The notes under the pieces were generated by a model. The model worked only from the letters and a program-made list of their open reading frames with translations. It did not search any database and was not told the origin of the DNA. Below are positions 9,131-9,471 of a stretch of 18,579 bases of DNA, in pieces. Location: IMG/VR virus record IMGVR_UViG_3300039366_000108. The stretch is one strand, 5' to 3'. Numbering within the stretch: position 1 is the first letter of the stretch; the number at the start of each line of letters is the position of its first letter. Origin of the DNA: a virus. Its lineage: Duplodnaviria; Heunggongvirae; Uroviricota; Caudoviricetes. Both the position numbers and the translations under genes were made by a program.

Positions 9131-9471
9131 AAGGTAGACGGTTGGTAGACAGATTCACTTAACCCTCTACCAACCATCTACCAATTAATATTTTGAATTA
9201 TAAAGATATTTTCAATGTGGTAGAGAGGTAGACAGTTATTTCTATATTCCTAAACCACGGGGGGTATATAAAAAACAGATAGTTAAGGGGGCATTTTTTA
9301 AATTTCTCTTTTAACTGTCTACACTGTCTACCATTTAGTAAAAATCATTAATTATCAATGTATTAATGCGGTAGACCGTTGGTAGACAGTTTGCAGATTG
9401 TTTTTTTGTTATGTGTTAATAACATTAAATAAATCAATCAATTATATCGGTAGACAGTTGGTAGACAGTTG
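9131..9471. repeat. Iteron-type replication origin: at least 11 copies of GGTAGAC(A/C)GTT in both orientations, interleaved with AT-rich tracts
   Basis: AGGTAGACGGTTGGTAGACAG 9132-9152; inverted copies 9165-9182 and 9314-9332; GGTAGAGAGGTAGACAGTT 9219-9237; GGTAGACCGTTGGTAGACAGTT 9370-9391; GGTAGACAGTTGGTAGACAGTT 9449-9470. Confidence 0.7.

Follow-up and report, generated by a model that had tools for sequence, protein, structure and literature searches.

The window analyzed here is a stretch of 18,579 nucleotides (IMG/VR record IMGVR_UViG_3300039366_000108) that represents an Escherichia coli chromosomal island of the phage-inducible chromosomal island (PICI) type, roughly 16-17 kb in size and located at tRNA-Thr beside proA. 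Sequence comparison indicates, with a probability of about 0.86, that the vegetative origin of replication of this satellite island, which is syntenic with the island EcCICFT073, corresponds to 9106-9488, and that the 601-aa protein encoded immediately upstream is a self-loading superfamily 3 (SF3) helicase-initiator of the P4-alpha/PICI Pri-Rep family. Three features of PICI-type origins were found: the repeat array is placed directly 3' of pri-rep, two iteron sets surround an AT-rich spacer, and the adjacent SF3 helicase carries a C-terminal binding domain. An original prediction, made from the letters of the sequence only, had already proposed an origin adjoining its initiator gene at this site. 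Position and architecture, which match the validated Gram-negative PICI origin of EcCICFT073, the P4-alpha-type binding domain and the covariation of the iterons are all consistent with that proposal.

Twelve copies of GGTAGACMGTT (with up to two mismatches) were found inside 9133-9470, and eight more are spread across the rest of the 18.6-kb window. Five of the twelve fit this degenerate consensus exactly, four with one mismatch and three with two. When the 341-bp region was shuffled 2000 times with its dinucleotides preserved, the copies numbered 0.17 on average and 2 at most. Exact GGTAGAC occurs nine times in the window (0.8 expected), with eight of these copies within 9133-9466. The iterons form six doublets, four of them with a pitch of 11 bp and two with 8-9 bp, and they occur in both orientations, in agreement with the at least eleven copies in doublets that had been predicted. 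They are split into two sets of six (9133-9237 and 9313-9470), which flank a 75-bp spacer. The first iteron starts 27 nt past the stop codon (ending at 9105) of the upstream gene. GC content is 27-33% over 9100-9500 compared to 45-62% in the flanking genes, and in identical sequence in RefSeq E. coli genomes no gene is annotated between the 9105 stop and the start of a ProQ/FinO gene at 9489; the region is thus AT-rich and gene-free, as had been claimed. The sole ORF touching the array region is an unannotated 71-aa minus-strand ORF (9438-9653). The initiator gene and the origin region comprise the following features:

7300..9105, plus strand: initiator gene ('pri-rep', P4 alpha-like), 601 aa, annotated as 'DNA primase family protein'
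8770..9075, plus strand: origin-binding domain (aa 491-592), phmmer match to PDB 1KA8
9133..9154, plus strand: iteron doublet 1 (starts 9133 and 9144), GGTAGACGGTT GGTAGACAGAT, 11-bp pitch
9161..9182, minus strand: iteron doublet 2 (starts 9161 and 9172), GGTAGATGGTT GGTAGAGGGTT on the minus strand, 11-bp pitch
9183..9218, no strand: AT-rich tract between doublets 2 and 3, from the nearest-neighbor stability scan
9219..9237, plus strand: iteron doublet 3 (starts 9219 and 9227), GGTAGAGAG GTAGACAGTT, overlapping, 8-bp pitch; left edge of the central spacer
9238..9312, no strand: central AT-rich spacer of 75 bp, GC about 32%, candidate unwinding region
9313..9332, minus strand: iteron doublet 4 (starts 9313 and 9322), GGTAGACAGTG TAGACAGTT on the minus strand, 9-bp pitch; right edge of the central spacer
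9353..9365, plus strand: putative IHF site (consensus match only), TATCAATGTATTA, 5 bp upstream of doublet 5 and within the 38-nt repeat D1
9370..9391, plus strand: iteron doublet 5 (starts 9370 and 9381), GGTAGACCGTT GGTAGACAGTT, 11-bp pitch
9432..9444, plus strand: putative IHF site (consensus match only), AATCAATCAATTA, 5 bp upstream of doublet 6
9449..9470, plus strand: iteron doublet 6 (starts 9449 and 9460), GGTAGACAGTT GGTAGACAGTT, 11-bp pitch; ends 18 nt before the ProQ/FinO start at 9489

Doublets 1 and 2 together constitute a near-palindrome with 17-nt arms that are 94% complementary (DNA hairpin −13.1 kcal/mol, z=−4.7). Doublets 3 (plus) and 4 (minus) converge across the 75-bp spacer, and a long-range stem was found between them (z=−4.8). 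Two of the four IHF-consensus matches of the window fall in the origin region; they belong to a repeated 38-nt unit in AT-rich DNA and are regarded as putative sites only. DnaA boxes were not enriched, with one 1-mismatch match in the region and 30 versus 22 expected window-wide. A plasmid RepA-type iteron origin, as in pSC101, F, P1 and R6K (tandem direct 17-22-bp iterons, DnaA boxes and a non-helicase Rep), was rejected because the units in the window are 11 bp long and both inverted and direct, DnaA boxes are not enriched and the initiator is a helicase. An Rfam scan of the whole window (E≤1) returned only tRNA-Thr and two sub-threshold chance matches, and no RNA element in the region.

The protein encoded upstream of the array consists of a Toprim-like N-domain (aa 1-125), D5_N, the SF3 helicase (DUF5906) and a C-terminal origin-binding domain. 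Pfam matches were obtained for D5_N, DUF5906 and Pox_D5, together with a weak match to PPV_E1_C; NCBIfam matches were likewise obtained, and the helicase ORF is intact with the Walker A motif GPGGSGKS. Residues 232-434 match the SaPI5 PriRep helicase (PDB 7OLA, E=9e-10 over 200 aa), residues 491-592 match the C-terminal domain of the P4 primase (PDB 1KA8, E=6.4e-19, phmmer), and residues 141-592 are 49% identical to residues 322-769 of P4 alpha. The 1KA8 alignment has a 5-residue indel exactly within a hypervariable segment, KRAKCTKGPDKGRVITN (aa 564-580), which from this alignment and from general knowledge of winged-helix domains is the presumptive 'wing' of the fold. From its domain matches the protein can securely be regarded as a helicase and origin-binding protein. 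The original prediction had named the gene a primase/helicase, and the label 'primase' is not supported since neither a Zn-ribbon nor a recognizable Toprim was found in the 601 residues. At best, aa 1-125 represent a degenerate remnant of a Toprim domain, and primase activity is unproven.

Origins of Gram-negative PICIs are located immediately 3' of the initiator gene and contain two iteron sets around an AT-rich region (PMC6092414). A temperature-sensitive plasmid with the rep-ori fragment of EcCICFT073 formed colonies at 44 °C, which were absent with the rep mutant and significantly reduced in number with the ori deletion (PMC6092414). It is only for EcCICFT073 that rep and ori have been shown to suffice for autonomous replication (PMC6092414). 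The validated region of this island (positions 6997-7284 of locus L107) contains 11 iterons, GGTAGACAG/GGTAGATAG, with the same core as in the window. Both islands have int, HTH, YlcI/YnfO, Icd-like, small ORFs, DUF4222, a primase-family gene, a gap and PerC in the same order, and in both the origin directly follows the primase-family helicase gene. A comparison with origins of related islands had been proposed as a check; in both islands 11-12 short iterons in both orientations lie around AT-rich DNA, and the gap of EcCICFT073 shares the core GGTAGA(C/T)AG. The EcCICFT073 protein also has the D5_N-DUF5906-Pox_D5 architecture, likewise without a Zn-ribbon/Toprim match. However, the proteins are only 43% identical, and the variable segment of the binding domain is ITRKVKGVTQTN in EcCICFT073 instead of KRAKCTKGPDKGRVITN. 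The array is about 230 bp long there compared to 338 bp in the window and is arranged differently. The att site is ycfD-phoQ rather than tRNA-Thr/proA, and the genes downstream encode a hypothetical protein and SSB instead of ProQ/FinO.

The P4 GenBank record lists a 'crr (cis required region for replication)' with 'ori type 1 repeats' directly 3' of the alpha gene. These repeats, GGTGAACA, form doublets in both orientations, some with a 9-bp pitch. The window resembles P4 in the array located directly 3' of the gene, as is crr, in the doublets of 9-11-bp pitch in both orientations, and in the helicase and origin-binding domain, which share the 49% identity mentioned above. The type-1 repeat TGTTCACC (GGTGAACA) itself is not the repeat of the window, since the window core GGTAGACA is off at two positions; read on the alpha strand, P4 has GGTGAACAGT and the window GGTAGACAGT, two core bases apart. 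Many homologs carry the P4-type GGTGAACA. P4 alpha possesses a real Zn-ribbon and Toprim primase module whereas the window protein has only the degenerate Toprim-like N-domain, and the terminator between alpha and crr in P4 has no predicted counterpart in the window.

In P4, two separated clusters, ori and crr, lie 4.5 kb apart and are both needed in cis. The array might accordingly be a crr-like cis-acting enhancer that is bound by the protein while initiation takes place at a second site of the island. The position of the array corresponds to that of P4 crr, and the protein is 49% identical to alpha. A split organization is also present in locus L024 (Erwinia rhapontici NZ_CP159261.1), which encodes a true P4-like alpha of 812 aa: the array is absent after its stop codon, and GTGAAYA clusters are located 2.8 kb upstream and 2.1 kb downstream (1177-1272 and 7643-7739), as in the ori/crr layout of P4. 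The window, however, has a single iteron cluster. No second cluster was found in it, and outside 9133-9470 there are only scattered 2-mismatch matches and an isolated copy of GGTAGAC at 6036, the only exact one not in the array. Moreover, in EcCICFT073 the rep gene and this single region sufficed for plasmid maintenance (PMC6092414). We therefore consider an enhancer with initiation elsewhere very unlikely.

Staphylococcal pathogenicity island (SaPI) Reps are self-loading SF3 helicases; with a winged-helix domain at the C-terminus they bind 6-12 iterons that directly follow rep, and SaPI origins have opposed iterons on either side of a central AT-rich region (PMC9371898). The window shares with them the SF3 helicase (core homology to 7OLA) with a presumptive winged-helix domain at its C-terminus and iterons directly after rep that are opposed around an AT-rich center. 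It differs in that SaPI iterons are 5-6 nt long and unrelated in sequence, the protein similarity is distant, the host of SaPIs is Gram-positive and their transcriptional layout is another one. In SV40 large T antigen and papillomavirus E1 an origin-binding domain is fused to an SF3 helicase, and head-to-head hexamers assemble at short inverted repeats beside AT-rich DNA. These systems are alike in principle only; their origin-binding fold and repeat sequences differ from those of the window. A literature search with the iteron strings returned only unrelated papers containing primers, and one on the P4 origin-binding domain returned only papers on the plasmids pRN1 and pIGMS31.

The homologous loci that we compared came from different enterobacterial species (23 loci) and from viral contigs (80 loci), with one induced cf-PICI-like element in addition. 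Absence of the repeats from homologs had been named as an outcome that would speak against an origin. Iteron arrays were present in nearly all of these approximately 100 loci: an AT-rich stretch with 8-18 iterons directly follows the stop of the helicase gene, the array being weak in L012 and located elsewhere in L024. Almost all copies of each core in a locus lie inside that array. The first downstream gene belongs to 20 unrelated groups among 25 loci, and thus the array goes with the helicase gene and not with the gene downstream.

This bears on the possibility that the array is not an origin and serves mainly as an operator or promoter for the ProQ/FinO-PerC genes, to which the helicase or some other regulator binds. 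The last doublet is only 18 nt away from the ProQ/FinO start codon, a weak sigma-70-like match (9221-9248) overlaps doublet 3, and a plus-strand terminator was not predicted between the helicase gene and the ProQ/FinO gene. Nevertheless, the array follows the helicase gene whatever lies downstream and covaries with the DNA-binding domain of the helicase, and promoter-like matches are no more common than in shuffles (3 versus 1.4 ± 1.3). An operator in place of an origin is therefore highly improbable, and a secondary regulatory role of the array on these genes is possible. Given the short distance from the last iteron to the start codon and the lack of a predicted terminator behind the helicase gene, occupancy of the origin might influence ProQ/FinO-PerC expression.

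Six iteron core classes were distinguished among the loci (GTAGACA, GTGAAYA, GTGGAGA, GCGGACA, GTGGACA and GTAGATA), and all copies in a locus switch together. Each core class is paired with one form of the hypervariable, indel-bearing segment of the binding domain, located between EYGKEY and SN(V/I)xL; the class-B form reads KRKTKHGIRSN. No real exception to this pairing was found in 79 unique protein-plus-array combinations; the apparent one was the P4-like locus L024. Locus L023 (metagenome-assembled Enterobacterales genome JBCNOW010000009.1, 5000-5900) combines a domain body of class B (GTGAACA), identical at 70-71 of 75 positions to L019/L020, with a variable segment and iterons that are all of class C (GTGGAGA), and is apparently a natural recombinant. 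The comparison suggests that the iterons are specific to the cognate Rep.

Among 5426 complete E. coli genomes, 105 contain the intergenic origin region at ≥90% identity, in every case as part of the chromosome; the region was likewise detected in E. ruysiae and many viral-contig records. Single chromosomes can contain several copies, three in NZ_CP122722.1 (E. coli ETEC1747) and two in NZ_CP122620.1; therefore, islands sharing one origin type can co-reside.

The region could also be the decayed origin of a defective island, still recognizable yet non-functional. In favor of this, numerous islands of the kind bear the annotation 'cryptic', the one in the window exceeds the usual size of PICIs and has cargo genes such as GapS1, and in the relative L027 (IMGVR_UViG_2563366929_000001) an IS3-like insertion splits the array. 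Opposed to this are the intact helicase ORF with its Walker A motif, the preservation of all six doublets and the wide occurrence of the region at ≥90% identity. In addition, iteron core positions 2-6 (GTAGA) are under-substituted among ten close relatives, with 5 of 60 columns variable compared to 52 of 214 in the spacers (p=0.0065, post hoc). Taken together, a relic is quite unlikely. In L027 the split occurs after the fourth doublet, at the equivalent of window position 9359, and the inserted DNA resembles an IS3-family end (...TGGAGACTAAACTTCC...ATGACTAAAAATACTCG).

Several observations weigh against the assignment as an origin. The functional evidence comes from the sister island EcCICFT073, and the copy in the window is known by its sequence alone. 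The full 9-nt core is no better conserved than the spacers in the ten close relatives (p=0.32). The least stable 30-mers of 9000-9600 in the nearest-neighbor scan are 9183-9212 and 9417-9446, both outside the central spacer, so that the melting site is uncertain. No canonical primase module was found in the protein. An AlphaFold model of its origin-binding domain reached a pLDDT of 47, too low for use, and was set aside. Physical linkage confounds part of the covariation: the codons of the binding domain are 30-400 bp from the iterons, and co-inheritance would give some association because of this proximity. Only two findings go beyond linkage, namely that all copies change in concert and that a recombinant such as L023 exists, and these argue for a functional match between protein and DNA.

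If the region is the origin of the island, induction by a helper phage and excision of the island would come first. The C-terminal origin-binding domain would then recognize the 11-bp iterons with the core GTAGACA, and helicase hexamers would assemble in opposite orientation on the two iteron sets (six sites each), with the inner doublets facing each other. The hexamers would melt adjacent AT-rich DNA and load themselves, as has been proposed for SaPI Rep and is known for other SF3 initiators. The host polymerase would then replicate the excised circle, probably with host priming. Binding, melting, hexamer loading and the choice of the AT tract that is opened are inferred, and the mechanistic details are taken by analogy from work on SaPI Rep and P4 alpha.

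The remainder of the window shows the traits of a PICI: an integrase at a specific att site, an alpA-type regulator, pri-rep, and nearly all annotated genes on the plus strand. Capsid or tail annotations are absent from the island. The features outside the origin region are:

832..904: tRNA-Thr, with the island downstream of proA
1074..2288: integrase
3359..3556: AlpA/excisionase-type HTH protein of 65 aa, matching excisionase/regulator PHROGs
Gene order up to the initiator: int, HTH, AntA-family, YlcI/YnfO-like and Icd-like, small ORFs, DUF4222, 601-aa gene
Gene order after the initiator: repeat gap, ProQ/FinO, PerC, unknowns, GapS1

A masked run of 68 N (766-833) directly borders tRNA-Thr on its 5' side. 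The search for attR as a repeat of the 3' end of the tRNA was negative, and the right boundary, between GapS1 and a LysR pseudogene, is taken from the RefSeq context only. The 512-aa ORF at 4476-6014 (plus strand) has a family match only in its last 52 residues (Icd-like/repressor PHROGs); in RefSeq, only this C-terminal piece is annotated, and two minus-strand genes (hypothetical and YlcI/YnfO) lie inside the ORF. Directly past the origin, a gene for a ProQ/FinO-domain RNA-chaperone-like protein and one for a PerC-family regulator occupy 9489-10303. The cargo includes a GapS1-family anti-phage gene (15403-17001; NCBIfam E=2e-130), consistent with satellites as defense hotspots.

At 13311-13575 there is a second, unrelated repeat array, in which AAAGTGTCAA(C/G) occurs about seven times, in both orientations. 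This array is situated in a 380-bp gap between the ORF 12765-13310 (HTH_17, with a weak match to a terminase-small-subunit PHROG) and the ORF 13692-14276, and could be a pac/TerS-binding site or an operator array. Sites of the pac and parS type can contain short motifs repeated in AT-rich DNA, and the array at 9133-9470 might by this likeness be a packaging (cos/pac) site or a centromere-like partition site made of protein-binding repeats. Its repeats, however, track the binding domain of the helicase and not a terminase, and the array beside the terS-like ORF is the better pac candidate. Genes of the par type are absent, and PICIs have neither a plasmid state nor segregation genes (PMC6092414). 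A packaging or partition site is thus the least probable of the explanations considered and can practically be dismissed.

The replication origin of the island is of a known, experimentally characterized kind; its arrangement is not new, and the understanding of how such islands replicate stays unchanged. The pattern linking the variable segment to the iterons is an only mildly new by-product. The hypervariable segment from EYGKEY to SN(V/I)xL may be a swappable cassette that sets which of the six iteron cores a P4/PICI-family initiator fires, and that makes mutually orthogonal, recombination-reassorted replicons in enterobacterial satellites. We put this forward tentatively, at somewhat below even odds, from the sequence comparison. 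L023 would then be a natural example and the element in the window the 'GPDKG-insertion / GTAGACA' member. A statement of such a cassette was not found in the searchable literature, outside of which most of the older P4 work lies.

About 2% of complete E. coli genomes contain this satellite island. Its replicon, consisting of initiator and origin, has now been located, which is useful as an aid to annotation and as a ready-made minimal replicon. Across P4-like, PICI and cf-PICI elements, the iteron type would be predictable from a segment of about 15 residues of the initiator. This pattern could be of use in designing orthogonal replicons or in foreseeing cross-talk where several satellites reside together.
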